Notes under the pieces: generated by a model
Seen by the model: only the letters and a program-made list of their open reading frames with translations
Databases searched by the model: none
Told to the model about the DNA's origin: nothing
In this document: positions 328 through 49,886 of the stretch, piece by piece
Layout of the letters: each line of letters begins with the position of its first letter
Numbering within the stretch: position 1 is the first letter of the stretch
Made by a program: the position numbers and the translations under genes
Assembly (NCBI GenBank): GCA_002328025.1
Contig: DCVE01000003.1
Location: 17,222 to 81,221 of the forward strand
Direction: 5' to 3'
From: Patescibacteria group bacterium UBA2196
GTDB lineage: Bacteria > Patescibacteriota > Patescibacteriia > UBA2196
Length of the DNA stretch: 64,000 bases

Positions 328-847
328 CTTGCATAATTTCATCCATTTTTTCTGCTGATTGTTGTAATAATTTTTGTCCCTCTGCTTTTTTACCAACCAC
401 ATAAGCTTCATAGCCTCTTTGAGCACCATCCAAAGCTAACACTAAATTTAAGTGTACATCTTTATAGATACCAGTTAAAGTTAATCCCATTATTGCATCC
501 ACAGCCTCTTTAACATTTATAATTTTAGCAGCATAATCATCCGCAACTAAATTAGCATCTTGAATTAAATATTTTTTTACTATTTCTACTGCTCTCTGAC
601 GATAGTTGCTGTCTAATGCAACTGTGTCTATTTTTAATTCCTGATTTTTATTATAATCCGTCAAAAATAACTTACCCATTATTTTGTTCTGATTATTATT
701 TTGCACCACACAAGAAACAGAAAATAAAGAAATTAATAATAAAAAAATTCCAACTAAAACAAAAATTAAAACCAATATCATTTTAGCCTGTATTGTCATT
801 TTATTTTTTTTTGGCATATATTTAATTTTTTTGACTATATTTTTCAA
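302..847 (-). CDS. hypothetical membrane-anchored protein
   Basis: N-terminal hydrophobic segment MILVLIFVLVGIFLLLISLF; overlaps the upstream SPFH gene by 26 nt, so the true start may be an internal Met near 799. Confidence 0.45.
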   Translation of the reverse strand: MKNIVKKIKYMPKKNKMTIQAKMILVLIFVLVGIFLLLISLFSVSCVVQNNNQNKIMGKLFLTDYNKNQELKIDTVALDSNYRQRAVEIVKKYLIQDANLVADDYAAKIINVKEAVDAIMGLTLTGIYKDVHLNLVLALDGAQRGYEAYVVGKKAEGQKLLQQSAEKMDEIMQANTWLKTE

Positions 848-1571
848 AAGCCCGCAAAACCTCTAAAGGAATCATAAATATCATGGTATTTGATTGGTCC
901 GAAGAAACATCGTTAATGGTCTGCAAAGTGCGTAAATGCAAAGCGCCTTGTGAGCCAGCCAAAATAGTCGCTGCTTTAGCCATATTATCCGCGGCAATGA
1001 CTTCGCCTTCGGCCTTAATAATCACCGCTCTTCTTTCTCTTTCTGCTTCTGCCTGCTTGGCAATCACCCGCTTCATATCTTCTGGCAAATTAATATCTTT
1101 CAATTCCACTGAATCAACTTTAACCCCCCACGGATCAGTGGCTGAATCTACCACTTGCTGGATTCTTTTGGAAACATCGTCACGATTAGACAATAATTGA
1201 TCCAAATCCACTTCGCCCACCGCGTTTCTCATGGTGGTTTGCGCCAATTGCGAAACCGCATAATAAAAATTTTCCACTTCAATTACTGCTTTGGCCGCGT
1301 CAGATACTTTGTAATAAATTACCGCGTTGACTTTAACGGAAATATTATCTTTGGTAATCGCTTCCTGGTCTGGCACATCCACGGCTTTAACGCGAATGTC
1401 CACTTTTTTCATAGATTGGAAAACCGGCCAGACAATTCTCCAGCCCGGATTTTTCATCCCCACATAACGACCCATAGTAAACATTACTCCGCGCTCGTAT
1501 TGATTAACTTGGCGCAGTGATGCTAAAACTAAAACCAACACCACAAATATAATCCAAAATAAAGTAATCAT
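822..1571 (-). CDS. SPFH/band-7 family protein (stomatin/prohibitin-like)
   Basis: N-terminal TM, then typical band-7 core (QYERGVMFTMGRY...AVDVPDQEAITKDNISVKVNAVIYYKV...AEAERERRAVIIKAEGE). Confidence 0.85.
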   Translation of the reverse strand: MITLFWIIFVVLVLVLASLRQVNQYERGVMFTMGRYVGMKNPGWRIVWPVFQSMKKVDIRVKAVDVPDQEAITKDNISVKVNAVIYYKVSDAAKAVIEVENFYYAVSQLAQTTMRNAVGEVDLDQLLSNRDDVSKRIQQVVDSATDPWGVKVDSVELKDINLPEDMKRVIAKQAEAERERRAVIIKAEGEVIAADNMAKAATILAGSQGALHLRTLQTINDVSSDQSNTMIFMIPLEVLRAFEKYSQKN

Positions 1572-1633
1572 ATGTTTTTCCTTTTATAATCCAAAAAAAT
1601 GGATTTAAATTATTATTAAAATATTATTTTAAA

Positions 1634-2968
1634 TTATTCTACTGTCAACTTACCAGGCCCTAATGGATTATATCCATTTTGTACTTCTTCACCATCCAGA
1701 TATCCATCATTATCAGAATCTGGATAATTAGGATCAGTTCCCCAAATTTTTTCTTCCACATCAGTCAAACCATCGCCATCAGAATCCAAATTTAAATTTT
1801 CATTTTCAAGTTGTGTATTCTCTTCATCAGTAAAACTGGTGTCAAAATTTAATTCTTCATCTAATTGAAGTTGATTATTATCTGTTTCAACCTGATCTTG
1901 AACTTGGTTTAAACTCGAAACTATTTTGTTATTAGGAAAAAATTTCATTAAATAATCTAACGAATCCATACTTAATGTCTCTGATTTAATTAAGAAAAAA
2001 GGTAAAATTCCAACCAATAAAATAGTTGGGATTAAAAATATTAACATCAGCGTCCATATTTTTTGCCACACTGTATATTTTTCTTCGCTCTCTATTTTAT
2101 TTTCTTTATTTAATAAAAGATTCTGATAAATATCACTATCATATATCGCACCAAATGATCTAAAAAGTAAAGAAATAAACATATTGGCCAAAGAAAGGCC
2201 AAGATATAACACAAAAGAAACTATGGTAAAGGCAGTGCCCAATCCGCCAAACAAATTAACCAAAAAGAACGCCAAAGCAAAAACAATTTGCACCAAGGGT
2301 TGAAAACCACTAAATAATATAACGCGTTTAAAAATTGCCCATCTATAACCCTTTGATAATTCGGCGCTTCTTTTTAAAGCTTTTCCACCACGCTTGCCTT
2401 CTATCAAAAAAGCATAGGGTGCTAGACCATATTTTATACCCCAGACAATGCCCGGGATTATTAAAAGTAATAAACCACCAAAAACAACTAATGATTTCAA
2501 TATTTCAACCCAAAAAAGTCCCCACACGTTTTTTCTACTCATTCTTAATGTTTCTTTTTTGCTAGCCGATGAATTAAATATAGTATAGACATAACAAGCC
2601 AGTGGCCAATTTAAAATATAAACAACAGCACCAATTAAAGATAAAACTCCAGCAATTCCTAAAATAACATTAATTACATTCAACGCAATCCCATCATTAT
2701 TTCTAAATATAAAATTTAGTATTGCATAAACCAAAAACGTTAATATCAATGGCAAAACGGCTAAAAAAGATGGCACTATGGCAAAAAAGATAAACCTCCA
2801 TTTTCTTGCCCAAGCACGAGCAATAGAATCTTTAAAAAGCTGCAACCAATTTTTAAGTGAAACATTAAAAACATCCGGCATTGGGTTCGTTGATATTTTT
2901 TCTGGTTGAACCGGCGTTGGGTTTGTTGCTGTAGACTGACTGTTTTGATTAAAATTTTGTTCCAACAT
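1634..2968 (-). CDS. polytopic membrane protein with C-terminal thrombospondin-type-3-like Ca-binding repeats
   Basis: multiple hydrophobic helices; C-terminus [34 protein letters not shown] (DxDxDG repeats). Confidence 0.55.
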
Positions 2969-13773: not shown

Positions 13774-14322
13774 TTATTCTCCAGAATCATGTGACATTTT
13801 AACTGCGGCTTCTTGAATTTTTTGCACAATTTCTGGATTGTCAGAAGTAATTGTCATTTGCACTCCATTTTCTAAATTAACAACCCTACGATTAACTTCA
13901 TCAGAAAAACCCATCAAACCCATGGGACCGAAAGAACATTCTATTTTACCCTTTCGTTGTCCATTTTTTTTAAATTCTTCCATTCTAGCTTTCATCTCTT
14001 CGGTTAGTTCAGGCCTATTAACTCTCATTTCTCCCATTTTAGCTTGTCTTTCTTCTTCGCTCATAATCTTCCACTCTTCCCTTTGAACTCCTCTTTCAGC
14101 TTTGCATTCTTCAATTTTTACCCGCCATTCTTCTGAACCTTTTTCAAGTCCTGTTAAGTCACATTGTTCACCGCCTCTAAAAAAACCGAACATACGCCCT
14201 CCACCAAAAGCATTTGCTTGGAGTGTATTAAAGGCAATTCCGCCAACAATAAATGACGCAACAATTAAGGTGCCTATGACTATTTTTGTTTTAGTAATCA
14301 TATTTTTTAAAAAGTTTTTCAA
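13774..14322 (-). CDS. hypothetical secreted/periplasmic helical protein
   Basis: signal peptide; Glu/Lys/Met-rich helical repeats (EEWK..EEMKARMEEFKK). Confidence 0.45.
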   Translation of the reverse strand: MKNFLKNMITKTKIVIGTLIVASFIVGGIAFNTLQANAFGGGRMFGFFRGGEQCDLTGLEKGSEEWRVKIEECKAERGVQREEWKIMSEEERQAKMGEMRVNRPELTEEMKARMEEFKKNGQRKGKIECSFGPMGLMGFSDEVNRRVVNLENGVQMTITSDNPEIVQKIQEAAVKMSHDSGE

Positions 14323-14339
14323 CTTTAGTTAATTTTTAA

Positions 14340-14530
14340 TATTAAACTGTTGGTCGACCTTTAAGCGACCAATCGAGCTGATCCGAGAGGATAAATCCGC
14401 TTAATATTGGCCTTTATCATTAATACAACCCTAACTCCAAATTTATTTCATTTTTATCCCAAAAGGTCAAATAAAGGGCCCGATTAAAAGCCCATAATCC
14501 TCTCGTTCGGCTCATTTTATCCAACCCTTA
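14340..14530. ncRNA. candidate structured RNA or palindromic-element cluster (uncertain)
   Basis: 290-bp non-coding gap with long-range complementarity (GATCCGAGAGGAT at ~14375 pairs with ATCCTCTCGTTCGG at ~14497) and short GC-rich hairpins (TTGGTCGAC-CTTTAAG-CGACCAA; GGGC-CCGATTAAAA-GCCC). Confidence 0.2.
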
Positions 14531-14628
14531 TAAATATTAATACCGGACTATCACCCCTTTTATTTCATTTTAAAAATTTAAAAACTACTCCATTTTTATG
14601 GAATAGTTTTTTGCAAATTTAACAAACA

Positions 14629-15549
14629 TTATTCAATACATTTATCAAAACACTCTCTGGGATGAATTCTATTCTTAAAACATTCTTTAATACATTCATT
14701 GGTTTGCTCATCAAAATTTAATAAATGCGATGGTAATGGTGGTGTAATAGTTGAATAATTTCTGGAAAAAGAAACAAACTGACGATGTATGCCTCGTCTA
14801 ATCATCGGTGGAAATCCTTTTTCACCTACAACGTGTATTTTTTCTGCCACAAAAACACTATCTTCTTTTTTACCAACAGCAATAATAAATTGGTCTATCG
14901 TAAATGGGTCTTGACAACCAGCTTCACTGAATCTATGCGAGTCAGAATTATCACAATCTAATTCTAATAAACTTACTTTTTCAAAACCACGCGGTGTTTC
15001 TAAAATTAAATAGTTATCATTTATTTCATAAATTTTGCCCGCTATGCCCCTACCTCTCGATTCTATCCCTCTGCCAATAAGTGGTTTGAGAAACATGCCA
15101 GGTACGCGATTTTTAAAAGCCTGTTCCTCTATGCTTTCCGTAACACCGCTGTAAGCTGCTGCACTGCCAACAATTAAAACCAAAGTCAATATACCCAAAG
15201 CAAAATACTTAAACGGTTTTTTATATGACCACTCAGTCTTTGTTATTAAATATCCAGTTGCAAATAAAAGTAAAATCAAGCTAACAACTAACAGATACGG
15301 AAATGATTCTAAAAAAGCCAAAATGCCTGCTTTGCCAAAACTTAAGTATTCTAAGCTGTCAGTAGTTCTCATATAGAATAAAACCAGACTAAAAAACAGG
15401 ATAGACAAAATAACCGTTAAAATAATGCCGCTATTCAATCCTAACTTTTTAGCTAAAAATACATATTTTGAACGCAACTTAACTCTGCCAGATTTAATCT
15501 CTGACATTATTTTGTCTTCTAATCCTTTAGATTTGTTATTATTTTTCAT
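14629..15549 (-). CDS. putative anti-sigma factor (membrane protein with Cys-rich C-terminus)
   Basis: start overlaps the stop of the upstream ECF sigma by 11 nt; multiple TM helices; C-terminal NECIKECFKNRIHPRECFDKC. Confidence 0.5.
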   Translation of the reverse strand: MKNNNKSKGLEDKIMSEIKSGRVKLRSKYVFLAKKLGLNSGIILTVILSILFFSLVLFYMRTTDSLEYLSFGKAGILAFLESFPYLLVVSLILLLFATGYLITKTEWSYKKPFKYFALGILTLVLIVGSAAAYSGVTESIEEQAFKNRVPGMFLKPLIGRGIESRGRGIAGKIYEINDNYLILETPRGFEKVSLLELDCDNSDSHRFSEAGCQDPFTIDQFIIAVGKKEDSVFVAEKIHVVGEKGFPPMIRRGIHRQFVSFSRNYSTITPPLPSHLLNFDEQTNECIKECFKNRIHPRECFDKCIE

Positions 15550-20184: not shown

Positions 20185-20261
20185 ATAGCATTACTTTAGC
20201 ACTCAAAACTTAAATTGACAACCAATTATTTTTTCAGTATAGTTAATGAATAATGCCAGAT

Positions 20262-20348
20262 GGAAGGGTGGCAGAGTGGTCTAACGCGACAGTCTTGAAA
20301 ACTGTTAGGGATGAAAGTCCCTCGTGAGTTCGAATCTCACCCCTTCCG
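20262..20348 (+). tRNA. tRNA-Ser (TGA)
   Basis: GGAAGGGTGGCAGAGTGGTCTAACGCGACAGTCTTGAAAACTGT... with long variable arm and T-arm GAGTTCGAATCTCAC; no CCA encoded. Confidence 0.85.
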
Positions 20349-20381
20349 TATTTAAAAAAAATAGAATTTAATAATGTTTAT

Positions 20382-20472
20382 GGAGAGATGGCCGAGTGGC
20401 TTAAGGCGGCAGGTTGCTAACCTGTTGTATGTCTTTTTGGGCATACCCAGGGTTCAAATCCCTGTCTCTCCG
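20382..20472 (+). tRNA. tRNA-Ser (GCT)
   Basis: GGAGAGATGGCCGAGTGGCTTAAGGCGGCAGGTTGCTAACCTGT... long variable arm, T-arm CAGGGTTCAAATCCCTG. Confidence 0.85.
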
Positions 20473-20555
20473 TTTCTAAAATCAACGCATAAAATATATC
20501 TTGCATTAATCATTTTTTTCAGTTAGAATAATTGTAATTAAAAATTGTATTCTAT

Positions 20556-20630
20556 GGCGCCATCGTCTAATGGTCAGGACACCAGGTTTTCATCCTGGTA
20601 ATCGGGGTTCGATTCCCCGTGGCGCTACCA
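20556..20630 (+). tRNA. tRNA-Glu (TTC)
   Basis: GGCGCCATCGTCTAATGGTCAGGACACCAGGTTTTCATCCTGGTAATCGGGGTTCGATTCCCCGTGGCGCTACCA; anticodon loop TTTTCAT; CCA encoded. Confidence 0.85.
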
Positions 20631-20655
20631 AAACAATAAGAATTATTATATTTAA

Positions 20656-20771
20656 TCTAACAGGTTTTTCCGCCTAAGGCGGACCCGCCTCTAGCGGGCA
20701 TCCTGGTAATCAGGGTTCTCCACCTAAGGTGGATCCGCCTCTAGCGGAAATTTCCACCCGTGGCGCTACCA
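20656..20771 (+). pseudogene. tRNA-Glu-derived pseudo-copy carrying two 30-nt GC-rich double-hairpin insertions
   Basis: 25 bp downstream of tRNA-Glu, the sequence TCTAA-CAGGTTTT[ins1]CATCCTGGTAATCAGGGTTC[ins2]AATTTCCACCCGTGGCGCTACCAAAAA reproduces the tRNA from the D-loop remnant to the CCA end. ins1 is TCCGCCTAAGGCGGACCCGCCTCTAGCGGG (20669-20698) and ins2 is TCCACCTAAGGTGGATCCGCCTCTAGCGGA (20719-20748). The acceptor 5' half and D-stem are missing. Confidence 0.5.
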
Positions 20772-20826
20772 AAAATATCCCTAACTAAATCAGGGGTATT
20801 TTTGTTTTATAAATATCTTTTATGTT

Positions 20827-21555
20827 TTATCCGCGCGCCAAAACCAAACCCCAGACTTCCTTTGTGCCAGCTGCTTTTAAGACTTTGGCCACCTCCAAAA
20901 TAGTCGCGCCGGTGGTGTATACATCATCAATTAATAAAATTTTTTTATTTTTTAATGAATCAATAAATTTCAAATCACACAAAAATGCTCCGCTAATATT
21001 TTTTTGACGTTGGTGTTGTTTTTGCCCCACTTGAGGCTTGGTATTTTTTATTCTCTTAACCGCCTCTGCCCAGACTGGAATTCTTAAATATTGCGTGGTT
21101 TGTTCAGCTAAAAGCTGGGCCTGGTTAAAACCACGCCACAACAGACGTTTTTGTGCCAATGGTATCGGAATTAATCCATCAAAAAATCCGCTATCCAAAG
21201 CTGGTGTAAAAAAATGATTTGCTTGCTGAATTTTTTTAATCAAAATTTTTCCCAAAGGAATTTTTAAATCTTGAACAAAATTATATTTTAATTTATGAAT
21301 TAATTGCCGTAAATTTTTATTTTTCCACTGACTTGCAATTAACAAACCATCTAGATAAAAATCACGTTGACAGTGAGCATGTGTCTCACCGCGCAAACTC
21401 TTTTGTTGACAAACCGCACAATAAAAAAATTCCTCCAGCGGAATTTTTTCCAAACATTCGTTGCACAACCACACATCTTCTTTGCCGCACCCCAAACAAG
21501 CCAGTGGAAATAAAATATCCAAAACTATTTTTTTTAATTTCAAAAAAAGTTTCAT
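20827..21555 (-). CDS. comFC: ComF-family protein (double zinc ribbon plus type-I phosphoribosyltransferase domain)
   Basis: N-terminal CLGCG...CNEC...CAVC zinc ribbons; C-terminal PRTase motif ILLIDDVYTTGATI. Confidence 0.8.
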   Translation of the reverse strand: MKLFLKLKKIVLDILFPLACLGCGKEDVWLCNECLEKIPLEEFFYCAVCQQKSLRGETHAHCQRDFYLDGLLIASQWKNKNLRQLIHKLKYNFVQDLKIPLGKILIKKIQQANHFFTPALDSGFFDGLIPIPLAQKRLLWRGFNQAQLLAEQTTQYLRIPVWAEAVKRIKNTKPQVGQKQHQRQKNISGAFLCDLKFIDSLKNKKILLIDDVYTTGATILEVAKVLKAAGTKEVWGLVLARG

Positions 21556-24859: not shown

Positions 24860-26143
24860 TTATTTTAATTTTAAACTATAAATCTGTTCATTGTTTTCAT
24901 TCCAGAAAAAAAGACTTCGTCCATCACCCGCCAAAGATAAGTGGCTAATTTTAAAATTGTCATTACCATTTTGTTCCACGGGTAAAGCCAATAAGCGAGT
25001 TTGCCCCGTGCCCAAATCCACACGATAAATATCATCACCACCCTCATATGAAAGCTCTGGATATAACCCACTGCCTTGCGGTAAATTTTTTGGTACTGCA
25101 CAATAAATTTCATTAGTGCTGGCAAAAACGCATTTATCCACCCAAGTGTTTAGTTTTAAAGCTATATTATTATTGCCAATATTATCGCCACGCGCATCAG
25201 TTAGCCATAAAGCGGGGTTATAATTGGTGTCTTGCGAAACAATTTGATAAATTATTTTTTCACCACTTGGCGCCCACAAAGCTTTAAAACGCGTGCCTTG
25301 AATTTTTAATGATTTATAATTTTCACTCTCTTGGCCAATAAAAAAAACTTCTGACGAATTTAAACCTGAGGGTTTGGCATAAAACGCCACCACTTCTTCT
25401 TTGGGTGAAAAAACTGTTTGCACCTTATTTCCCTCTTCACCCAAATCCTCAATGTATTTGACTTTATTACCATCCGGATTGGCAATGGCCACAAAATTAT
25501 TTTCTGCATTAGCGCCTTCGTATTTAAAAGCAATTTCCGAACCAGACAAATTAAAAACTGGTTCTTTTACTTCTTTGGGTAAGGTGGTCTTTTTCTTGGT
25601 GGCAAAATTATAATAAACTTTTATACCATCTGGAAAAGTCATAATGGCCTGAGTGGAATCCGCTGACCAAACCACGTTTTCAACTGCAAAAAATTTTTCA
25701 TCCGACAATAATAATTTTTCCTTACCATCAGCCGAAAGCCGATAAAATTGACTGGAATTTTTATCATAATAAACCACACCCTGTTTATTGGGGCTCAAAG
25801 CCACGCCAACTGTCTTGTCGGCCGATAGTGGTAAAACATAAGTCGTGTTTCCTCTGGCAAAACTATCAGGTTGTTGAGCAACCGCCTGTCCACCAGTATT
25901 TGTTGCTGGCAAATTACCCGTTTGTGGTAGTTGTCCACCAGTCCCCAGCTGACCAGCGTTAAATCCACTTCCTGCTTCTGGTAACTGACCGGTAATTCCA
26001 GGTGGTAAATATCCCGGCTCTCCCGGCTGTGGTGCTGCGGTTCTAAAAAACATCCAGTAGATTAAAAATAGCAAAGCCAAACACACCACCACAAAACCCA
26101 TGACTAAAAATATTTTTTTATAATTAAATTTTTCTAAATACAT
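24860..26143 (-). CDS. secreted beta-propeller protein (TolB/PD40-like repeats)
   Basis: TM anchor, Gly/Pro/Gln-rich linker, then repeated WSADS.., SPKEEVVAF, WAPSGEKIIY, LSLAGDGRSLFF blades. Confidence 0.5.
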   Translation of the reverse strand: MYLEKFNYKKIFLVMGFVVVCLALLFLIYWMFFRTAAPQPGEPGYLPPGITGQLPEAGSGFNAGQLGTGGQLPQTGNLPATNTGGQAVAQQPDSFARGNTTYVLPLSADKTVGVALSPNKQGVVYYDKNSSQFYRLSADGKEKLLLSDEKFFAVENVVWSADSTQAIMTFPDGIKVYYNFATKKKTTLPKEVKEPVFNLSGSEIAFKYEGANAENNFVAIANPDGNKVKYIEDLGEEGNKVQTVFSPKEEVVAFYAKPSGLNSSEVFFIGQESENYKSLKIQGTRFKALWAPSGEKIIYQIVSQDTNYNPALWLTDARGDNIGNNNIALKLNTWVDKCVFASTNEIYCAVPKNLPQGSGLYPELSYEGGDDIYRVDLGTGQTRLLALPVEQNGNDNFKISHLSLAGDGRSLFFWNENNEQIYSLKLK

Positions 26144-26159
26144 ATTCTCATTTTTTTAA

Positions 26160-27533
26160 TTATGGACACACATGACATGGATCGTTTTGATAGGCGTCTT
26201 GTGAATTATACTGATCAGTTCCCGCACCCACTTCACATTTAGTTATGTTTTCACAATTTGGTTTATAAGCATTATTACCATCATATACACGATAGGTGTC
26301 ATCCGTACTAACACAACATATCAAGTTAGCCTCTTCATTGGCATAATTATCATCTATACAATATGTTAACTGATCTCCTGTTTCTCTGTGTTCGAAAGCT
26401 TTTCTTTTTCCACCGTCATCTGTCCAACAACCAACCGTACCATTTCCATCATTTTTAGGACCAGTCAGACAAGAAACCCTAGTCGTCGCAGCTGGACAGA
26501 ATATTCTTTTGGCCCACGCACATTCATCTGGATTTAAAAAACTATAGTCATTTCTAAACATACAAGAATATCCTAAAATTTTTTCGTCTTTATTATTATT
26601 TAAAGTTAAAGTTTGATCCATCATTTCATTAGCTTGGGTGCATCTCGTTTTATAACTATCCTTACACATTTTTGCCGGATCAGAACAATAAGAATAACCA
26701 CCATCAGTAAAACACGCTTCTTCGTGGGATTGGCAATAATTGCCCAAACAATAACTACCCATACTTAATTCTTTCTTGTTTGCGATATTTAATTCGTCTT
26801 CATAACCATATGAATATTTTTTACCACAAAGAAAAGCAATATTTGTACCACTAATTCCCTGTCCAACGGTTCCAAAAGGAATCTCAGCTGGATAATAAAC
26901 ATATCTTAATGTATGGCCAGTCGCCGGATCTGTACCATATGTACGAGGAAAATCATTGCACCAAATACTTGTTGGTTGTTCAATCTTTTCAATTCTAGTT
27001 ACGCCCGGCAAACTCAAATTCACTAAACGCGGGTTGATATTATATAAAATTACATACGAAGTTAAAGCTAAAACCAGTCCGGTAATCGCTGCATAGATTG
27101 TGGATTTGGCTTCACTCACACTACCCATATTACCAGCTGCAAAAATCCAACGCAGTCCGCCAATCATAATCATGAGCACGGCAATAATAGCAATAATACC
27201 AATTGAAAAATTATAAAATTTTTGCACATAAAACGGCAACGAATCAACCCAATAACATGTTTTTTCCACAACTTTAGTTGTGCCATTGACTATTACCACG
27301 TCATTACTATCAGTATATTTACACGCATCACTAATTCCCGGAATCGGGACTTGCACTCTAATTTTACCCACTGGCGGACAAATTGGATTTTTAGTAGCTG
27401 TGTCTATGTCGCACGCCTTGACACCACTTTGTGCCTTAACCACATTAGTCAACACAAAAAGCGCCACAATTAAATTCAATACAAATAACACCATTACAAC
27501 CATTAAAAATATTCTATTAATTTTTTTAATCAT
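26160..27533 (-). CDS. Cys-rich membrane/surface protein (T4SS-operon member)
   Basis: signal/TM, a central pair of hydrophobic helices (GIIAIIAVLMIMIGG...ITGLVLALTSYVILY), and a long C-terminal region with more than 30 Cys. Confidence 0.45.
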   Translation of the reverse strand: MIKKINRIFLMVVMVLFVLNLIVALFVLTNVVKAQSGVKACDIDTATKNPICPPVGKIRVQVPIPGISDACKYTDSNDVVIVNGTTKVVEKTCYWVDSLPFYVQKFYNFSIGIIAIIAVLMIMIGGLRWIFAAGNMGSVSEAKSTIYAAITGLVLALTSYVILYNINPRLVNLSLPGVTRIEKIEQPTSIWCNDFPRTYGTDPATGHTLRYVYYPAEIPFGTVGQGISGTNIAFLCGKKYSYGYEDELNIANKKELSMGSYCLGNYCQSHEEACFTDGGYSYCSDPAKMCKDSYKTRCTQANEMMDQTLTLNNNKDEKILGYSCMFRNDYSFLNPDECAWAKRIFCPAATTRVSCLTGPKNDGNGTVGCWTDDGGKRKAFEHRETGDQLTYCIDDNYANEEANLICCVSTDDTYRVYDGNNAYKPNCENITKCEVGAGTDQYNSQDAYQNDPCHVCP

Positions 27534-27541
27534 AAATTATA

Positions 27542-28072
27542 TTATGTTGAACATTCAAAACCAAAATATTGTGCCAAAGGGTTTAAAGCGGCCGGCGCCA
27601 AACTAACAATATCACAACTATAAGCATAAATTGCCGCAACTATAAAAATCATAATTAATAAAATCAGCCAAAACCACCAAGTCGCCACAAAAAAAGTACC
27701 CACGGCTTCCAAAACTGGCAAAATAACACTTTTGAAAAACATTTTTTTTGCCTTTTTTTCAACTGTTTTTTCTATTTCTGTCTTTGCTTGTTGTCTAGCC
27801 AGCTCTTGTATCTGCTGAAATTGACTGCGCGCAGTTTGCTCTTCCTCTTCACCGGCCAAGATATCGTTTTCCTCTTCTAATTGCTCTTGTTGGTCATCAT
27901 ATTCTTCCTCTTCGTCTTCATCATCATCATTTTGCACACCATCTCCCTGTTCTTCTTTAAAACGCGTGGCAACTAATTCTTGTTGTCTTTCGCGTTCCAA
28001 CTTAGCTCTTTCATAAGACGAAAGTGTATTGGTTTCATTTTTTTCATTTGGATTTTGAGTTTGATTTGTCAT
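27542..28072 (-). CDS. hypothetical membrane protein with highly acidic N-terminus
   Basis: DDDEDEEEEYDDQQEQLEEEND followed by C-terminal TM helices. Confidence 0.4.
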   Translation of the reverse strand: MTNQTQNPNEKNETNTLSSYERAKLERERQQELVATRFKEEQGDGVQNDDDEDEEEEYDDQQEQLEEENDILAGEEEEQTARSQFQQIQELARQQAKTEIEKTVEKKAKKMFFKSVILPVLEAVGTFFVATWWFWLILLIMIFIVAAIYAYSCDIVSLAPAALNPLAQYFGFECST

Positions 28073-28101
28073 TTAAAATTTGAATTTTGATATTTACGCT
28101 T

Positions 28102-28707
28102 CTACTGCCAACGTGCTTCGTCAATCTGCCACACTCCGCTGTCTTTAAGAAATACAATCTGTAAATCTTGATAATAAACACGCGAATTAGCTTCCGCACC
28201 AACCGATTCCTGTCGCTGCGTTGAAACAATTACTTGCGCATTTTTACTTTCTAAAATTTTTAGATTGGTGTTCAATGCGCGCGTGGTAATCCCATAATAG
28301 ACTGTTGGTAAAGGCCCCTGTTTTTTACTGACAACCAAAGAATCAATCCAGGTCTGCATCTTTAGGGTCATTAAAATCTTAACATCCAAAAGATTTTCAT
28401 AATTTGACTGATTTGAATAAGAGCCAAATCTTTCCGCAAAAGCCGCCGCTGTTTTGATTAAAAAACTTCTTTCTTTTTCTTCTGCCGTCAACTCTTTAAC
28501 CACTGGCGCGACTACCTTTACATTATTAATATCCGGCTGAGTGGTAGGTAACTTTTGTGTCACCTGGTTTTCATCAACTGGTGGTAAAACAATTGGTTCG
28601 GTTGATTCATTTTTACGTGCGCCAAAAATTGAAATTAATGCTAAAACAAGCACGGCAATCAACAGTATAATAACCACTATGGTAATAACAAGTCTGGTAC
28701 GGGACAT
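28102..28707 (-). CDS. bitopic membrane protein with NTF2-like C-terminal domain (VirB8/TcpC-like candidate)
   Basis: single N-terminal TM; C-terminus QDLQIVFLKDSGVWQIDEARW resembles NTF2-like folds; sits immediately downstream of VirB4. Confidence 0.35.
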   Translation of the reverse strand: MSRTRLVITIVVIILLIAVLVLALISIFGARKNESTEPIVLPPVDENQVTQKLPTTQPDINNVKVVAPVVKELTAEEKERSFLIKTAAAFAERFGSYSNQSNYENLLDVKILMTLKMQTWIDSLVVSKKQGPLPTVYYGITTRALNTNLKILESKNAQVIVSTQRQESVGAEANSRVYYQDLQIVFLKDSGVWQIDEARWQ

Positions 28708-28716
28708 AGAATAATA

Positions 28717-28839
28717 AATTTCTAATTTTCAATTTCTAATTTTCAAACAATTTTCAATAACTTAATTTCTAATGATTGAAACATTGAAAATTATAACATT
28801 AGAAATTGTCTAGAAATTGAAAACTAGAAATTAGAAATT
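28717..28839. repeat. large imperfect palindrome built from the AATTTCT/GAAATT motif
   Basis: left arm AATTTCTAATTTTCAATTTCTAATTTTCAA (28717-28746) and right arm TAGAAATTGAAAACTAGAAATTAGAAATT (28811-28839) are reverse complements; lies between the VirB4 stop and the next gene start. Confidence 0.5.
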
Positions 28840-28859
28840 AAATTAATATCTGTCACTTC

Positions 28860-30746
28860 TCACTTCTGCTCTTCTCCCAGCGAAGCATCAAATTCTTTTT
28901 TGGCTTCTTCAATTTCCAAAATCTGTCGCGGATCAGAGGTTATAATTTGGTCTTCAGTATAAGAAGCCACAATTTTTATGGCCGCATGTTTGGCACCGGC
29001 AAAAAATATACCTTCACCCACGCCCGATTCCAATAATAAATATTTTTCCCCTTGTGTCAAACGAAAAGTATTAGACACCACATCAATGGCCGAAGCGGTT
29101 TGTTTCAACAGAAACTGCAAAGCTGAATTATTTAAAATTGCCTGTCCATACGGTGAAGCCAAAAAATCATTTACATCCTGTGTGATGGTAGTGACACCCA
29201 AATAATACTTGCGACATCTTTTGACTAAAGCAAAAATAAATTTAGCCGAATCTTCGTGTTGCATCAACCACCACGCCTCATCAATAACCAAAATTCTTTT
29301 CTTTAAAACCGACCGTACTTTATTCCAAATATAATTTACAATGGTATAAATGGCCATTGGCCTAAGTTCGTCTTCCAAATCCCGCACACTATAAACCACC
29401 AACTGATTATTCACATCCACGTTGGTCGGATAATTTAATAAACCAGCAAAGGTGCCATTGGTATATTTGTCCAATTTTTGCGCTAATAAATCACCGCCTT
29501 CCATGTTGGCCAACACTTCCTGCAAATCCGACATAATAGGAAATTGAACACCTTCAACCAAAAGATTAGTATCGGGCGTAATATCTTTTTTGGCGTAAGT
29601 TTCAAGCAAAGCTCGGTCTAAAACCGAATCTTCAACATGCGACACCTCACCAATCATAATTCGTAATAAACCCTTTAGGGTAATAACGGCCGAACGAATG
29701 ATATCACCTGTACTGGTTTCTTCATCCATTGGTTTGGGTAGGTCAAAAGGATTAATTTTGGAATCAGAATTTAAAGAAATATTAACATATGTACCCCCGA
29801 CCGCCTCGGCCAAATATTGATATTCCCGTTCTGGGTCAATTACAATTACATCCGTACCCAACATTAAACTGCGCAAAACTTCCAATTTTATGGCATAACT
29901 TTTACCCGCTCCCGAAGTGGCAAAAACCACGGAATTGGCATTTTGCAAACTAAAACGATCAAACAAAATTAAAGAATTATTATGCCGGTTTATACCATAT
30001 AAAACTCCCGAATCAGAAGACAATTCGGCTGAGACAAAAGGAAAAGAAGAGGCGCACGGCGAAGACTGCATGTTAAACCCCACACTTAACTGATCTAAAG
30101 CCATGGGCAAAGTAGAATTGAAACCCTGTTCGGCTTGCCAATAAGCACGGCGCGAATACACCATCTTGGAACCAATTAAACTTTCAATTCTTTCCGTTAG
30201 CAAATTTAAATCTTTTTGATTATCAGCATACATGGTAATATACAGACCAAAATGGAAAAAATGTTCCACGCCCTGAGTCAGATCATCGCGCAATTGTTCG
30301 ATATCTCTAAGCGCCGTCTCGGTGTGCGGATCTCGCGGAGCGCCTTTTTCTGCATCGCCAGAAAGTTGCGCTTCTAAAACACCCACCTTGTCACGCAACT
30401 GTTTTAAAATTATTTTTGATTCCATGGGATAAAAATACATGGCAATGTCCAGAGTGGCTGAAAAATCAATAATTGGTTCAAACCAACCTACGTCAATATA
30501 ACGCGGGTAAGTGGTCACAAAAACAGTCCGCGTCCATTTGCCGCCCAGTTGTAAATAATTAGGCGCGACTTTAAATGAGGTTGGTGAAATTAAATCCAAA
30601 ATAGAAGCCGCCCCTTGACGATAGGCTTGTTCTGCCATCAAAAGTTCTTTTTCTGAAACCACCTTTTCAGTTTCGCTAGCCAGCTTCTTTTCCTCAGAAA
30701 CCTGTGGTGTTAAAGTTTGAATTTTGGGTAATTCTTTACCAAACAT
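28860..30746 (-). CDS. type IV secretion ATPase, VirB4/TrbE/PrgJ-like
   Basis: Walker A SGAGKSY, Walker B ILVIDEAWW; N-terminal membrane-proximal VirB4 region (FKVAPNYLQLGGKWTRTVFVTTYP). Confidence 0.85.
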   Translation of the reverse strand: MFGKELPKIQTLTPQVSEEKKLASETEKVVSEKELLMAEQAYRQGAASILDLISPTSFKVAPNYLQLGGKWTRTVFVTTYPRYIDVGWFEPIIDFSATLDIAMYFYPMESKIILKQLRDKVGVLEAQLSGDAEKGAPRDPHTETALRDIEQLRDDLTQGVEHFFHFGLYITMYADNQKDLNLLTERIESLIGSKMVYSRRAYWQAEQGFNSTLPMALDQLSVGFNMQSSPCASSFPFVSAELSSDSGVLYGINRHNNSLILFDRFSLQNANSVVFATSGAGKSYAIKLEVLRSLMLGTDVIVIDPEREYQYLAEAVGGTYVNISLNSDSKINPFDLPKPMDEETSTGDIIRSAVITLKGLLRIMIGEVSHVEDSVLDRALLETYAKKDITPDTNLLVEGVQFPIMSDLQEVLANMEGGDLLAQKLDKYTNGTFAGLLNYPTNVDVNNQLVVYSVRDLEDELRPMAIYTIVNYIWNKVRSVLKKRILVIDEAWWLMQHEDSAKFIFALVKRCRKYYLGVTTITQDVNDFLASPYGQAILNNSALQFLLKQTASAIDVVSNTFRLTQGEKYLLLESGVGEGIFFAGAKHAAIKIVASYTEDQIITSDPRQILEIEEAKKEFDASLGEEQK

Positions 30747-30800
30747 ACAAGATAATTTATAGTGTCTTAATTTTAAAAATTAATTCATTGGAAATTGTTT

Positions 30801-30829
30801 AAAAATTAGAAATTAGAAATTGAAAATTT
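30801..30829 (-). promoter_or_regulatory. AATTTCT direct-repeat motif upstream of the VirB4 gene
   Basis: on the coding strand TTTTCAATTTCTAATTTCTAATTTTT lies ~55-80 nt upstream of the ATG, followed by TATAAAT. Confidence 0.4.
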
Positions 30830-30832
30830 ACT

Positions 30833-31546
30833 CTACTCTTCCACCTGCATTAAATCTGTGGACAACATTTTTTGCTGACTATAGACTTCCAAATTGTAAG
30901 TGTTATAAAACAATTCAATTAAACTTTGAGTATCTAATTGCACAGCCGAAACACCCATGGATGATAAACCAGAAACCACTCGATCAACCCTTTTTTCAAT
31001 CTGTTTTTTATAATCAAATAAAACTTTTTCACTCATTCGAATGGCAGAAACTGGCGACAGAGCATGACCCAAACGCACAAAAAAATTCTCTTTGGTTTCT
31101 CCGCCCGGAATATACGGCACCACAACATAAAACTTTTTTGACATAATATCCCCCAGTTCCACCAATTCTTTTATGTATTGTACATATTCCTTGGTTTGGA
31201 TACGCAGCAATTCGTTGGTTTGGACTTTTTCTTTAACTGCAATATCAGCCAAATATTTATCAATGTTTAATTTTCTGGACTGCACCACAATCTGCAATGG
31301 AAAATCAATAAAATTTAAAAAGTTAACATATTGGCTCACAATGCCTTCCTGCTCCTCCGCTGATTTTAAGGAAAAATTAATTGACGAAGCCAGTAATACT
31401 ACGCGGATAGAACCGTCCTTCATCAACAACATATCGGAACGAATTTCCGCTATTTCCATATATTGTTGGGTGGACGGTAATGTTGATTTTTGTTGAATTT
31501 CTTTGCCAGACATAATAAAAATTAATTTACAATTTATAATTTTCAA
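30833..31546 (-). CDS. stand-alone protein resembling the VirB4/CagE/TrbE N-terminal domain
   Basis: LLMKDGSIRVVLLASSINFSLKSAEEQEGIVSQYVNFLNFIDFPLQIVVQSRK follows the PF03135-like pattern (kDGs...l.g.d...eE.e...n.L..L...q...r); no Walker motifs. Confidence 0.4.
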   Translation of the reverse strand: MKIINCKLIFIMSGKEIQQKSTLPSTQQYMEIAEIRSDMLLMKDGSIRVVLLASSINFSLKSAEEQEGIVSQYVNFLNFIDFPLQIVVQSRKLNIDKYLADIAVKEKVQTNELLRIQTKEYVQYIKELVELGDIMSKKFYVVVPYIPGGETKENFFVRLGHALSPVSAIRMSEKVLFDYKKQIEKRVDRVVSGLSSMGVSAVQLDTQSLIELFYNTYNLEVYSQQKMLSTDLMQVEE

Positions 31547-31617
31547 TTTCTAGATAATGTATTAATTATTTAATTTTCCATGTCTAAATTTTATAATATT
31601 AAAAATTAGAAATTATC
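31530..31617 (-). promoter_or_regulatory. AATTTCT-motif copies upstream of the 237-aa gene
   Basis: AATTTATAATTTTCAATTTCTAGA and AAAAATTAGAAATTA. Confidence 0.35.
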
Positions 31618-32052
31618 TCACTCTCCTTTATACATTCCGCCAGTATCTACGATCAAAGCCAACTCAATTAAACGCGATGAAACTGGTCTAGCCTTAAAAG
31701 CCAGTTTCTCAATTGGCTTTCTTTGAGCGTTTTTTTCTCTTTCCAGTTGAAATTTTATTTCATCCAAAGAAATATTCTTATTCCAGACTCGCAAATTAGG
31801 CCTTTTAAAACTTTGAATTATATTTAACAAAAAAAGATGAAATGGTTGACCATTAATTCTTACAAAAGCCAAAACCAATGCCGGTGCAAAAAAAATGAAA
31901 ATAGACACAATAAAAGCTGAGGTTGAAATTCTAAAAACTATTATTTCCACCACCACCGCAATAATAACAATTAAAAACTGCCTAGTCGTAACAGACAGAA
32001 AAATTTTATTTTCTTCTTCAATAAATTGTGGCACCACAAATCTTGATGGCAT
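31618..32052 (-). CDS. PrgI/VirB3-like small two-TM T4SS protein
   Basis: VPQFIEEENKIFLSVTTRQFLIVIIAVVVEI matches the PrgI-family pattern (p.d..e.ki.g.lt.rQ); two TM helices; positioned before VirB4 as in Gram-positive T4SS. Confidence 0.5.
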   Translation of the reverse strand: MPSRFVVPQFIEEENKIFLSVTTRQFLIVIIAVVVEIIVFRISTSAFIVSIFIFFAPALVLAFVRINGQPFHLFLLNIIQSFKRPNLRVWNKNISLDEIKFQLEREKNAQRKPIEKLAFKARPVSSRLIELALIVDTGGMYKGE

Positions 32053-47204: not shown

Positions 47205-47230
47205 AATTTTCAATTTCCAATTTCTAATTT
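47205..47230 (-). promoter_or_regulatory. AATTTCT-motif copy upstream of the 1486-aa gene
   Basis: AATTTTCAATTTCCAATTTCTAATTT immediately 5' of the start region. Confidence 0.4.
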
Positions 47231-47264
47231 AAAAACAATTTACAATTAACCAATAATTTAATTT

Positions 47265-47615
47265 CTAATATGTTTTTCTCAAGGTTGAAGAAATTCTGTT
47301 AAAAATAAGAACTAATTCATGAGCTTCTTTCCACAAAACTCTCAACTTGTCTTTTATTTCTATATTAGTTGTCACTAAAAGCTCAATCCAATATTCTGTT
47401 TCTTGAGCCTCTCGACGACAAATGAAAATTTTACTGGAAAAATCTTTTCTGGATGATGCGCCATTTACTTCTCTATAGTTTGCCCCAATACTGGTTGCTG
47501 AACGCAACAATTGATTGATTATGTTTCTATTTAAATCTGATATTTTTATTTTTGAAATTTCTTCAATCACCGCTTTACCAAATCTCTTTGTCCTTTCTTC
47601 CAAATCATAATTCAT
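47265..47615 (-). CDS. four-helix-bundle protein (TIGR02436, 23S rRNA intervening-sequence protein family)
   Basis: LRSATSIGANYREVNGASSRKDFSSKIFICRREAQETEYWIELL matches the family signature (RAavSi.aNIaEG..r.s.kdf..fl.iArgS..E...wl.l). Confidence 0.8.
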   Translation of the reverse strand: MNYDLEERTKRFGKAVIEEISKIKISDLNRNIINQLLRSATSIGANYREVNGASSRKDFSSKIFICRREAQETEYWIELLVTTNIEIKDKLRVLWKEAHELVLIFNRISSTLRKTY

Positions 47616-47619
47616 AATT

Positions 47620-47668
47620 GAAAAATTAGAAATTGATCATTGTTTAGAAATTAGAAATTGAAAATTTT
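47620..47668 (-). promoter_or_regulatory. AATTTCT-motif copies upstream of the four-helix-bundle gene
   Basis: GAAAAATTAGAAATTGA and TTTAGAAATTAGAAATTGAAAATTTT. Confidence 0.4.
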
Positions 47669-49485: not shown

Positions 49486-49547
49486 ATTGCTTATTTTATT
49501 TAAATAAAATATACTATAGATAAAATTAAATATTTAATCATACAAAT

Positions 49548-49886
49548 ATGAATTGGCCAATTATTATTCTCATAATTACTCAATTACTTTTTACAACCAG
49601 TGATCTCTTGGCTAGAAATTATATGCCTAAACAGGGTTTTGCATTAACAACTTTTTTAAGTAGTTGGTTTCTAGCATATTTTTTTATAAGAATTATTGCC
49701 ATGTTCGGCCAACTTTATGTTTTTACCCACATAGAGCTAGGCAAAACCATGGCTCTCTTTGGTGCTGTTTCAATTATTTTGGCTAATCTTTTAGGTTTTT
49801 TATTATTAAAAGAATCTATGTCTGTTGGTGCCTACATAGGTATAATGCTAGCAGTTAGTGCTTTTATTGTTTTGGCATTAAATTAA
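49548..49886 (+). CDS. small four-TM membrane protein (DMT/EamA- or SMR-like)
   Basis: 112 aa, four hydrophobic helices. Confidence 0.45.
   Translation: MNWPIIILIITQLLFTTSDLLARNYMPKQGFALTTFLSSWFLAYFFIRIIAMFGQLYVFTHIELGKTMALFGAVSIILANLLGFLLLKESMSVGAYIGIMLAVSAFIVLALN

Follow-up and report, generated by a model that had tools for sequence, protein, structure and literature searches.

REP sequences and REPINs are small (20–40 bp), GC-rich palindromes, presumed to be non-autonomous mobile DNA, whose doublets can adopt either a single long hairpin or a clover of two hairpins (PMC3116915, PMC3733652). One end of a REP carries an unpaired GTAG or CGTC tag (PMC3733652). The subject here is a 30-nt double-hairpin element, two copies of which interrupt a partial duplicate of tRNA-Glu in a 64,000-nt stretch from Patescibacteria group bacterium UBA2196 (GenBank assembly GCA_002328025.1, contig DCVE01000003.1, positions 17,222 to 81,221 of the forward strand); the whole of this stretch is referred to as the window. 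The locus is probably a decayed tandem tRNA-Glu duplicate that was invaded by REPIN-like mobile palindromes.

Several other systems of small palindromes provide points of comparison. Rickettsia palindromic elements (RPE) reportedly insert in frame into protein genes, where they are translated, and also into RNA genes. Double-hairpin elements of mitochondria are said to be optional between close relatives, to occupy intergenic DNA and the variable parts of structural RNAs, and to be regarded as mobile; to our knowledge, no enzyme has been found for them, and we know neither of their use as an in-frame linker nor of a regular association with duplicated tRNA genes. The small dispersed repeats (SDR) known from Nostoc and other cyanobacteria are reportedly hairpin-forming units of 21–27 nt, thought to be mobile, that extend hairpins within structural RNA genes, and we know of no description of a double-hairpin palindrome or a protein-linker frame among them. 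In attachment-site (att) duplications at tRNA genes, and in the 3′-tRNA repeats of Escherichia coli tyrT/rtT, the transcription unit of the intact gene also contains, further downstream, a partial 3′ copy of the tRNA that extends to CCA. The Allomyces mitochondrial double-hairpin elements and the GC clusters of yeast and Neurospora mitochondria are cited in passages of PMC7218506, and SDR are mentioned in a passage of PMC3116915.

A decorated partial copy of tRNA-Glu

The intact tRNA-Glu(UUC) gene (20556..20630, plus strand) encodes its CCA end and looks functional, being called by ARAGORN and matching the Rfam tRNA model over its full length (66.2 bits). An AT-rich spacer of 25 nt (20631..20655, plus strand) separates it from a 5′-truncated and decayed partial copy (20656..20771, plus strand), which starts with TCTAA, a remnant of the D-loop, continues with the anticodon arm, the variable region, and the T arm, and ends with the 3′ acceptor strand and ACCA. 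Local alignment of tRNA-Glu with the downstream DNA recovered TCTAA, CAGGTTTT, CATCCTGGTAATC(G>A)GGGTTC, and CCCGTGGCGCTACCA, with two gaps of about 30 nt between these pieces, confirming the statement in a preliminary description of this DNA that excision of two inserts regenerates tRNA-Glu from the D-loop to the CCA end. Within the copy, CATCCTGGTAATCAGGGTTC is identical to the gene at 19/20 positions (repeat D2) and CCCGTGGCGCTACCAAAA at 18/18 (repeat D3). The 5′ acceptor strand and D stem are missing and the T stem is damaged by the G>A change and by extra bases, such that no cloverleaf with a paired acceptor is formed. When the region was searched with tRNA models, as the same description had suggested, the intact gene was called but positions 20656–20771 gave no ARAGORN call and no Rfam match even at E ≤ 10; the pseudo-copy cannot be a tRNA.

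The two inserts had been described as copies of one ~30-nt element placed in the anticodon loop and the T-loop, and they can now be assigned exact coordinates. Copy 1 (20669..20698, plus strand; TCCGCC-TAA-GGCGGA followed by CCCGCC-TCT-AGCGGG) coincides with an exact 30-nt gap in the alignment and lies between anticodon-loop positions 35 and 36, thereby splitting the anticodon. Copy 2 (20719..20748, plus strand; TCCACC-TAA-GGTGGA followed by TCCGCC-TCT-AGCGGA), delimited by alignment, repeats, consensus match, and fold, sits in the T-loop after TTC. The copies form the core of a 37-nt repeat (D1) with a spacing of 50 nt, and both fold as two hairpins, whether as RNA or as DNA. All four differences between them form two compensated pairs, an outcome with a chance probability of about 2e-4. 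One is the paired change from G:C to A:T in hairpin 1 (30-mer positions 4 and 12) to which attention had already been drawn and which is real; the other, missed at first, changes the outer pair of hairpin 2 from C:G to T:A (positions 16 and 30). Folding of the whole pseudo-copy is also far more stable than that of shuffled sequences (z = −4.1 alone, −6.9 together with the tRNA).

The window is a segment of a candidate phyla radiation (CPR) genome with a low GC content (36.6%), in which the 13-mer cores of the inserts occur only at this locus (0.24 and 0.17 matches being expected by chance) and a scan for GC-rich hairpins found no comparable cluster elsewhere. A CRISPR array was rejected as an explanation for the repeat, there being only two copies (50 nt apart start to start) where such an array would have three or more, and the intervening 20 nt being tRNA sequence instead of a unique spacer of about 26–40 nt. 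A relationship of the insert to the D-arm of tRNA-Ser (GCTTAAGGCGG) was likewise rejected, the match of 10/11 being within the estimated chance expectation.

The history of the locus can be read from two relatives, whose orthologous loci were located by their conserved neighbour comFC. The sister genome GCA_964505965.1 (locus L012), with 92% protein identity in DnaG and DNA that is ~80%–87% identical, shares with the window the order dsbA, clpB, comFC / tRNA-Glu, Ser, Ser / dnaG, rpoD, FKBP, tRNA-Asn. It possesses a single tRNA-Glu followed directly by AAAAATATCC and a terminator-like hairpin, with no pseudo-copy and 141 bases fewer than the window, and the second relative (L007) has the same empty arrangement. 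In the window, the ancestral 3′ flank (AAAAATATCC and terminator) now follows the pseudo-copy, and the ancestral 5′ flank precedes the intact tRNA-Glu. This polarity places the extra DNA between the tRNA body and the old 3′ flank and makes it younger than the split from the sister species; since the latter is without the 141 bases, the structure is recent and lineage-specific. Comparison with both relatives shows that the ancestor carried a single tRNA-Glu(UUC), then the terminator, and then comFC. Three independent assemblies of this species (ENA, JGI, and Logan) have one and the same sequence in the region of the 141 extra bases, and the segment is therefore not an assembly artefact.

The preliminary description had named an element unique to the genome, within a non-coding RNA conserved among relatives, as the finding that would speak against mobile palindromes; instead, the sister species is without the whole segment and the element proves to be widespread. 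Nor was an integrated element found between the tRNA and comFC in the relatives, where one had been thought worth looking for: in both L012 and L007, tRNA-Glu abuts the terminator. Five more distant loci (L008–L011 and L018; 55%–61% protein identity) were set aside as comparators, gene order not being conserved there. Breaks of Logan contigs inside tRNA-Glu (L013–L017 and L007) were rejected as signs of polymorphism, because tRNA sequences shared among the species of a sample break k-mer assemblies. The 25-nt spacer is lineage-specific too, being absent from the sister locus, and has no significant similarity to anything in the 64-kb window. Its origin from the region upstream of the tRNA was considered and rejected, as the resemblance (17/22, a score equalled by 59/500 shuffles) and a weak inverted repeat around the tRNA are at the level of chance.

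The intact tRNA-Glu is the last gene of a Ser-Ser-Glu tRNA operon. A promoter-like site, TTGACA-17-TATAGT (20215..20243, plus strand; 11/12 in a consensus scan), lies upstream and is conserved in the alignment with L012; it is followed by tRNA-Ser(UGA) (20261–20349) and tRNA-Ser(GCU) (20381–20473), both on the plus strand and both found by ARAGORN and Rfam. The terminator-like hairpin (20779..20808), which is conserved in L012 and L007, separates the operon from comFC; it was called on the minus strand by a terminator scan, forms a strong hairpin in the fold, and is assigned here to neither strand, as the A and T runs around it could allow it to act in both directions. The pseudo-copy lies upstream of this hairpin and is thus probably co-transcribed within the predicted tRNA transcript. 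The comFC-type phosphoribosyltransferase gene itself (20827..21555, minus strand) was identified by the Pfam families Pribosyltran and DZR_2, and its homologues are named ComF or ComFC by their sources.

The 30-nt double-hairpin family

A strict pattern for the element (CCNCCTAAGGNGGANCCGCCTCTAGCGG) had no match in collections of genomes, viruses, and metagenomes, as the source genome is absent from all of those scanned. When the loops were relaxed and the stems kept fixed, near-identical 30-mers were found in two viral contigs. In one (L027), the element lies in an intergenic leader; in the other (L028), it makes up the final ten codons of the reverse transcriptase gene in a group II intron. 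The open reading frame (ORF) of the latter (384–1820, minus strand) ends in SALGGSASGG-K-stop immediately 5′ of domain V, and Rfam matches to D1–D4 and to domain V/VI (217–374, 1962–2194) support the intron assignment.

A further pattern (CCGCCNNNGGCGGAYCCGCCNNNNGCGG) gave at least 131 sites in at least 119 loci of species-representative genomes, and the family figures that follow (sites, share in ORFs, subtypes, and tRNA contexts) rest on these listed matches. Most hosts are Patescibacteria (Saccharibacteria and Kaiser-, Magasanik-, Doudna-, Lipton-, Giovannoni-, and Moranbacteria, among others), followed by many Omnitrophota, including a single-cell genome; Kiritimatiellae, Planctomycetota, Verrucomicrobiota, Lentisphaerae, Ignavibacteria, and Chloroflexota are also represented. 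BLAST searches with the consensus found no copy in GenBank phages or PLSDB plasmids, and those with the pseudo-copy likewise returned nothing relevant. No description of the element emerged from literature searches made by sequence, peptide, and keywords; the family is apparently undescribed, although the coverage was incomplete and a description may exist elsewhere.

The consensus reads tt-T-CCGCC-N-R-A-GGCGG-A / [T or C]-CCGCC-T-Y-N-GGCGG-[A or G]-aa, in which the covariation of positions 16 and 30, either T:A or C:G, defines two subtypes. The AT-type (96 listed sites) is palindromic almost perfectly over its entire length, with GGATCC at the centre; the AC-type (31 listed sites) has C:G in place of T:A as the outer pair of hairpin 2. 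By their sequence, both window inserts belong to this CCGCC double-hairpin family, copy 1 (AC-type, C16:G30) having one mismatch to the consensus core and copy 2 (AT-type, T16:A30) three, two of which form the compensated pair of its CCACC/GGTGG stem; both keep the loop positions A9 and T22. The TAA loop common to the two window copies occurs in 0/127 other listed copies and their AGCGG arm in 2/127, features rare enough to make the copies each other's nearest relatives, which suggests that they represent a sub-lineage specific to this genome. Elsewhere, up to 3 elements are found per 8-kb locus, compared with 2 in the 64-kb window.

Selection on the hairpin structure, which had been proposed from the differences between the two window copies, is supported by stem covariation throughout the family. 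A mismatch-tolerant search that was blind to structure recovered compensated variants of the stems, namely CCTCC/GGAGG (L105), CAGCC/GGCTG (in each of the two hairpins of L143), CCGCT/AGCGG (L062), and, in the window, CCACC/GGTGG, together with a few uncompensated, apparently decaying copies; L155 adds the variants CAGCC/GGCTG and GCGCC/GGCGC. Under a two-hairpin model of a 27-sequence alignment, 96% of cells are paired and 7/12 pairs change on both sides, a level that 0/500 shuffles reached, with slid controls giving 0–1; under a single long-hairpin model, pairing falls to 87.5%. Thermodynamically, the AT-type consensus prefers the long hairpin, whereas the AC-type and both window copies prefer the two-hairpin clover.

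Single hairpins of the form [T/C]CCGCC-N3-GGCGG[A/G] (15 nt) also stand alone, 30 of them being present in the examined loci outside perfect doublets (including L038:543, L041:369 and 639, L045:4340, L145:6367, and L146:1799); half-units may therefore exist or move independently. The single hairpin of L146 lies in an apparent tRNA D-loop, on the opposite strand, and adjoins a masked stretch.

The invasion of tRNA copies seen in the window recurs at no fewer than 15 other loci, where the element occupies the D, anticodon, or T loop of damaged tRNA copies. These mostly lie beside an intact tRNA, which is of the same type wherever the copy is readable. Such associations were found among genomes at L041, L062, L068, L098, L099, L121, L128, and L140. 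At L140, an intact tRNA-Arg is preceded by a tandem pair of 5′ partial copies whose D-loops contain the element; 5′ partial copies also lie upstream of tRNA-Ser and tRNA-Arg (L068 and L121) and directly before tRNA-Val (L062), with a second element 13 nt after tRNA-Ile in the last case. In Saccharibacteria (L041), the anticodon loop of a tRNA-Glu(CUC)-like copy is interrupted at 35/36 by a double hairpin that matches window copy 1 in both position and subtype, and this tRNA copy also bears single hairpins elsewhere. At L099, the D arm of an old tRNA-Ile copy holds an unrelated hairpin of 32 nt and the T-loop holds the 30-mer, and an intact, newer tRNA-Ile is nested inside this copy. This nested tRNA-Ile(GAU) of Parcubacteria FeB_17 (L099, 2040–2480, minus strand) is enclosed by perfect 18-nt inverted repeats, ATCTTTCAGAATACTCGC and GCGAGTATTCTGAAAGAT.

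A metagenome scan aimed at D-loop insertions added ten more loci (L151–L160). Among these, an intact tRNA-Val is followed by at least two tandem decorated copies (L151), and an architecture like that of the window is seen at L155, L158, and L160, where the copies are 5′-truncated, an element sits in the D-loop, and another, with variant stems, follows GGGTTC in the T-loop. The T-loop position of window copy 2, or a site adjacent to it, is occupied at L099, L155, L158, and L160. The AC-type is enriched in tRNA contexts (7/31 versus 1/96 for the AT-type; P = 2e-4), where its orientation is that of the tRNA in 7/7 cases; D-loop and anticodon-loop insertions are almost all of the AC-type, and those in the T-loop, window copy 2 included, of the AT-type. 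A metagenome contig with 68% GC (L154) has two full-length-looking tRNA-like copies (8–54 and 364–410) with the element in the D-loop, for which ARAGORN calls tRNA(UCA) only after the element is excised. It was rejected as a functional decorated tRNA, as its 'anticodon arm' GTCGCC-TCA-GGCGAC is a 6-bp stem with a 3-nt loop and resembles a single unit of the element.

Where invaded and intact tRNA copies lie side by side (L121, L068, and window copy 1), they differ by exactly 30 nt and no target duplication is present. The 5′ flanks show a T-run with a preference for T-Y-T and the 3′ flanks an A-run with A-N-A; complementarity between the two flanks was overall not above control, although individual loci do sit at the tips of hairpins. 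Long ORFs contain 69 of the 131 listed sites, far below the expectation from coding density, and 43 of these 69 are read in the frame SAxGGSAxGG (P = 8e-7). Comparison of a Giovannonibacteria Mfd with its homologue of known structure in the Protein Data Bank (PDB), that of Mycobacterium smegmatis, revealed two gaps of ~10 residues exactly at the elements. Two elements are also present in PheT, for which the alignment was too fragmented to demonstrate insertion, so that Mfd served instead, and one lies in a variable N-terminal loop of valyl-tRNA synthetase (ValRS). A patescibacterial ribosomal protein operon (L061, 1–4400) has three elements within 3.4 kb: two form the C-terminal tails of S3 (..VF[SAEGGSARGG]EGH) and L5 (..PI[SAKGGPASGG]K), and the third lies just downstream of L18. 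This distribution is the pattern expected of insertions filtered by selection, and not that of a conserved domain.

Two further groups of sites are of note in this context. Three Ignavibacteria proteins from different genomes (L071:6022, L090:391, and L131:2839) have the element at one shared site, flanked by ...VQF/IEF and (N/D)A..(A/S)SG(V/I)YFY, in a region resembling a putative C-terminal sorting domain of the type IX secretion system (T9SS), which suggests either a sequence-specific hot spot or spread among paralogues. In Omnitrophota BS750m-G21 (L109 and L133), inverted pairs of elements 1.3–1.7 kb apart surround ordinary genes (UppS, CdsA-like) and are embedded in heptamer repeats such as CAGGTTT/ACAGGTT, with flanks ACAGGTTT[element]AAACCTGT; the stem sequence in these flanks is the same as the anticodon arm of the window tRNA-Glu.

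Origin of the decorated copy

In the reading favoured here, that of a decayed duplicate invaded by mobile palindromes, the element would be selfish DNA of the REP/REPIN kind, mobile but non-autonomous; its hairpin (clover) fold would be what is recognised, and new copies would be placed in T-rich sites, preferably in the hairpin loops of tRNA genes. At this locus, tRNA-Glu would first have been duplicated in tandem; two insertions into the spare downstream copy would have come next, and then the decay of that copy, namely the 5′ deletion and the damage to the T stem. As tRNA-Glu(UUC) is probably single-copy and essential, an invaded copy could persist only where a duplicate exists, and survival in spare copies alone would explain why invaded copies are partial or damaged and mostly stand beside an intact tRNA. 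The window copies are closest relatives and yet two compensated pairs apart, which suggests hairpin-competent source copies elsewhere in the genome, outside the window. As to the mobilising enzyme, a hairpin-recognising single-strand DNA transposase (RAYT/IS200-like) would be the leading guess; template switching through microhomologies in the T/A runs is a possible alternative route.

The preliminary description had offered a family of tiny palindromic mobile elements as one explanation. This explanation is supported by the sites recorded, by recurrence in tRNA loops, and by stem covariation; mobility is read from the distribution of the element and from its exact 30-nt presence or absence, and no mobilising enzyme has been found. 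Several observations weigh against this reading. The window holds only two copies in 64 kb and the sister genome none in the 42 kb examined, so that activity in the lineage is only presumed. The window ORFs that were scanned encode no transposase, integrase, or recombinase; elsewhere, the 125 ORFs located within 700 nt of elements include no recurrent transposase family, and no transposase was seen in the intervals between paired elements. Relative to local genes, the AC-type copies are without strand bias (12 versus 14), which argues against a simple lagging-strand mechanism of the IS200/IS605 kind. Presence/absence polymorphism of the 30-mer alone was not observed between close strains, and with the whole pseudo-copy absent from the sister, the order of insertion and duplication is not readable from the data. 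The intact copy beside the invaded one is explained by the survival argument alone. Lastly, the family was found with a pattern that fixes the stems, and the covariation alignment was assembled by hand from variants returned by mismatch-tolerant searches.

The same locus might have been left by an integrative element which carried a 3′ segment of tRNA-Glu, rebuilt the gene, displaced its old 3′ part, and was then almost wholly deleted, with the hairpins as recombinase-binding sites or later additions. The distribution of ancestral flanks, with a new 3′ flank at the intact tRNA and the old one at the partial copy, would fit such an event, as would the 18-nt 3′ end that is identical in both copies and includes 3 nt beyond CCA. 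Integration into tRNA genes usually duplicates the 3′ part of the gene, and the anticodon loop and T-loop are said to be the classical crossover sublocations of the integrases concerned. The copies are, however, only 25 nt apart, no integrase or recombinase was seen among the scanned window ORFs, and the homology extends back to the D-loop. The same 30-mer, moreover, occurs in proteins and intergenic DNA at the 119 or more loci elsewhere, some of which have 5′ partial copies upstream of a tRNA, or tandem arrays, neither of which integration into tRNA genes would produce, and stems of 5–6 bp are too short for typical core sites of tyrosine recombinases. The att remnant, also raised in the preliminary description, is not supported by these data and is considered unlikely. 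A purely local origin, in which one anticodon-loop insert was copied to the T-loop by slippage or template switching between CAGGTTTT and CAGGGTTC with no active family involved here, is just as unlikely. It would account for the rare TAA loop and AGCGG arm common to both copies, for a similarity that reaches 9 nt upstream of the inserts (repeat D1), and for the lack of any further copy in the window. The flanks after each insert, however, follow the tRNA and not each other, excluding a tandem duplication; two subtypes and two compensated pairs are unexpected for a recent local copy in a pseudogene; and at L155 and L158, the loops of a single tRNA copy hold elements of different subtypes. Even then, the first insert would have to derive from the family, although the shared rare features make local copying possible for the second.

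The decorated trailer might instead be a non-coding RNA under selection, acting, for instance, as a decoy or sponge of some tRNA-binding enzyme or nuclease or serving processing or stability; the hairpins would then be protein-binding modules. Its position in a tRNA operon between a promoter-like site and a terminator-like hairpin, its stable fold, the compensated differences between the copies, and the recurrence of decorated copies beside intact tRNAs in several phyla would all agree with this. Against such a function, which we consider slightly less likely still, the pseudo-copy is absent from the sister species and L007, its T stem is damaged and its 5′ acceptor strand missing, the extent of the tRNA remnant differs at every locus (5′ parts, 3′ parts, and tandem arrays), the same 30-mer lies in frame in Mfd, PheT, ValRS, and ribosomal proteins, and no Rfam family matches. 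That the inserts are introns, removed from the RNA of a split or intron-containing tRNA-Glu that works or did so recently, is very improbable. They lie exactly in loops and their excision restores tRNA sequence, and in Thermoproteales archaea, small introns with related sequences are found at several tRNA positions. Excision nevertheless yields no complete tRNA, given the missing 5′ acceptor strand and D stem and the damaged T stem, and the site at 35/36 is not the canonical 37/38. The junctions flank two closed hairpins with no bulge-helix-bulge, and the organism is a bacterium. The frame preference in proteins means that the element is read through as codons and not spliced there, and the sole full-length-looking decorated tRNA (L154) has the 6-bp stem and 3-nt loop mentioned above in place of an anticodon arm.

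The ksgA inserts and the intergenic hairpins at 14.3 kb, with which the element had been compared in the preliminary description, do not belong to the 30-nt family. The ksgA/rsmA gene (48538–49485, minus strand) contains three in-frame extra segments of GC-rich hairpins with AT-rich loops (e.g. TCTCCCT-TATCAAG-AGGGAGA, TGCCCT-TAGC-AGGGCA, and CCCCTCC-TTATAAA-GGAGGGG), which differ from the element in sequence and geometry and which close relatives do not all share; the identity of KsgA to that of the sister species is only 77%, compared with 92% for DnaG. The intergenic region 14322–14629 has no Rfam match at E ≤ 1 and a fold no better than shuffles (z = −0.96), nothing having been shown there that would link it to the family.

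Other parts of the window also differ from the sister genome. DNA at 47219–47646, including a 23S_rRNA_IVP-family gene (PF05635; ORF 47265–47615, minus strand), is absent from the sister at this position, as is an AT-rich segment of 381 nt (49481–49861) between ksgA and the Sua5/YrdC gene, where an unannotated ORF of 112 residues is found (49548–49886, plus strand). Conversely, L012 has its own intergenic GC-rich insertions at the equivalent of window positions ~28048–28102, among them two copies of CATCCCGAGCGTAGCGATGGGAT, a REP-like hairpin motif that is absent from the window. A type IV secretion/conjugation-like gene cluster (24860–32052, minus strand) lies downstream of dsbA and includes a T4SS pilin-like gene (26160–27533), a TraG/VirB4-like P-loop ATPase (28860–30746), and a PrgI-family gene (31618–32052); it is conserved in the sister genome and is therefore not an island bounded by the tRNA.

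Significance and comparison with known systems

The locus itself is a recent, non-functional pseudo-tRNA, and its interest lies in exposing a widespread family with an affinity for tRNA loops and a tolerated linker frame. A wider proposal, advanced only tentatively, is that of a previously undescribed cross-phylum family (Patescibacteria, Omnitrophota, Planctomycetota–Verrucomicrobiota–Chlamydiota (PVC), Ignavibacteria, and Chloroflexota) with no end tag, target duplication, or recognisable transposase, which would prefer D, anticodon, and T loops, drive the duplication, pseudogenisation, and turnover of tRNA genes, and write an SAxGGSAxGG linker into conserved proteins by an as yet uncharacterised mobilisation mechanism. 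If this is true, the element would be one of the smallest known mobile DNA units, near-identical across many uncultured phyla with reduced genomes. It would account for some of the unusual partial tRNA genes, and of the short insertions in proteins, that are seen in CPR and Omnitrophota, and could serve as a natural marker for DNA exchange between co-occurring ultra-small bacteria. The question would then be raised of what recognises a 30-nt clover and inserts it with no target duplication, and the preference for tRNA loops with an intact copy nearby would offer a way to study how essential single-copy RNA genes survive selfish DNA. Annotation is affected as well: tRNA finders miss invaded copies, and 10 residues are added to Mfd, PheT, ValRS, and the ribosomal proteins S3 and L5.

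Among short elements associated with transposition, a miniature inverted-repeat transposable element (MITE) was considered and rejected, since the ends are inverted repeats but the target duplication is missing at L121, L068, and window copy 1. The palindromes derived from IS200/IS605 share this lack of duplication; the 5′ flank of the 30-nt element is, however, only T-rich (T-Y-T) rather than a fixed tetra- or pentanucleotide, and no IS200/IS605 TnpA was seen among the 125 ORFs within 700 nt of elements. The att duplications and tyrT/rtT repeats resemble the locus in that a partial 3′ tRNA copy reaching CCA lies downstream of an intact gene, but the loci of the 30-nt element have neither integrase nor element body, and show 5′ partial copies, tandem arrays, and 30-nt palindromes.

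Closer parallels exist among the small repeats. With SDR, the element has in common its very small size, its hairpins, and its presumed mobility, whereas sequences and taxa differ and SDR are single hairpins or tandem heptamers. The mitochondrial elements are likewise short, G+C-rich, two-hairpin units in AT-rich genomes, but their hosts are organelles, their length varies from 26 to 79 bp, and they have no sequence relationship to the 30-nt element. The RPE are similar in being palindromic insertions translated in frame and present in RNA genes too; they measure ~100–150 bp and are confined to Rickettsia, whereas the 30-nt element yields a 10-residue Gly/Ser/Ala linker in many phyla.

In its working, the element would be most like the REP/REPIN repeats, even though several of their defining features are not found. 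The two share a GC-rich palindromic doublet, a long-hairpin or clover fold, nesting with other repeats, and an occasional genic location (PMC3116915, PMC3733652). The flank logo of the 30-nt element, however, contains no GTAG/CGTC tag; REPs are mainly extragenic, whereas 69 of the 131 listed sites are in ORFs; and no RAYT-like gene adjoins the elements among the 125 neighbouring ORFs. Whereas REPs are species-specific, the element, whose whole doublet measures only 30 nt, is found with the same sequence across phyla and with a preference for the loops of tRNA genes.

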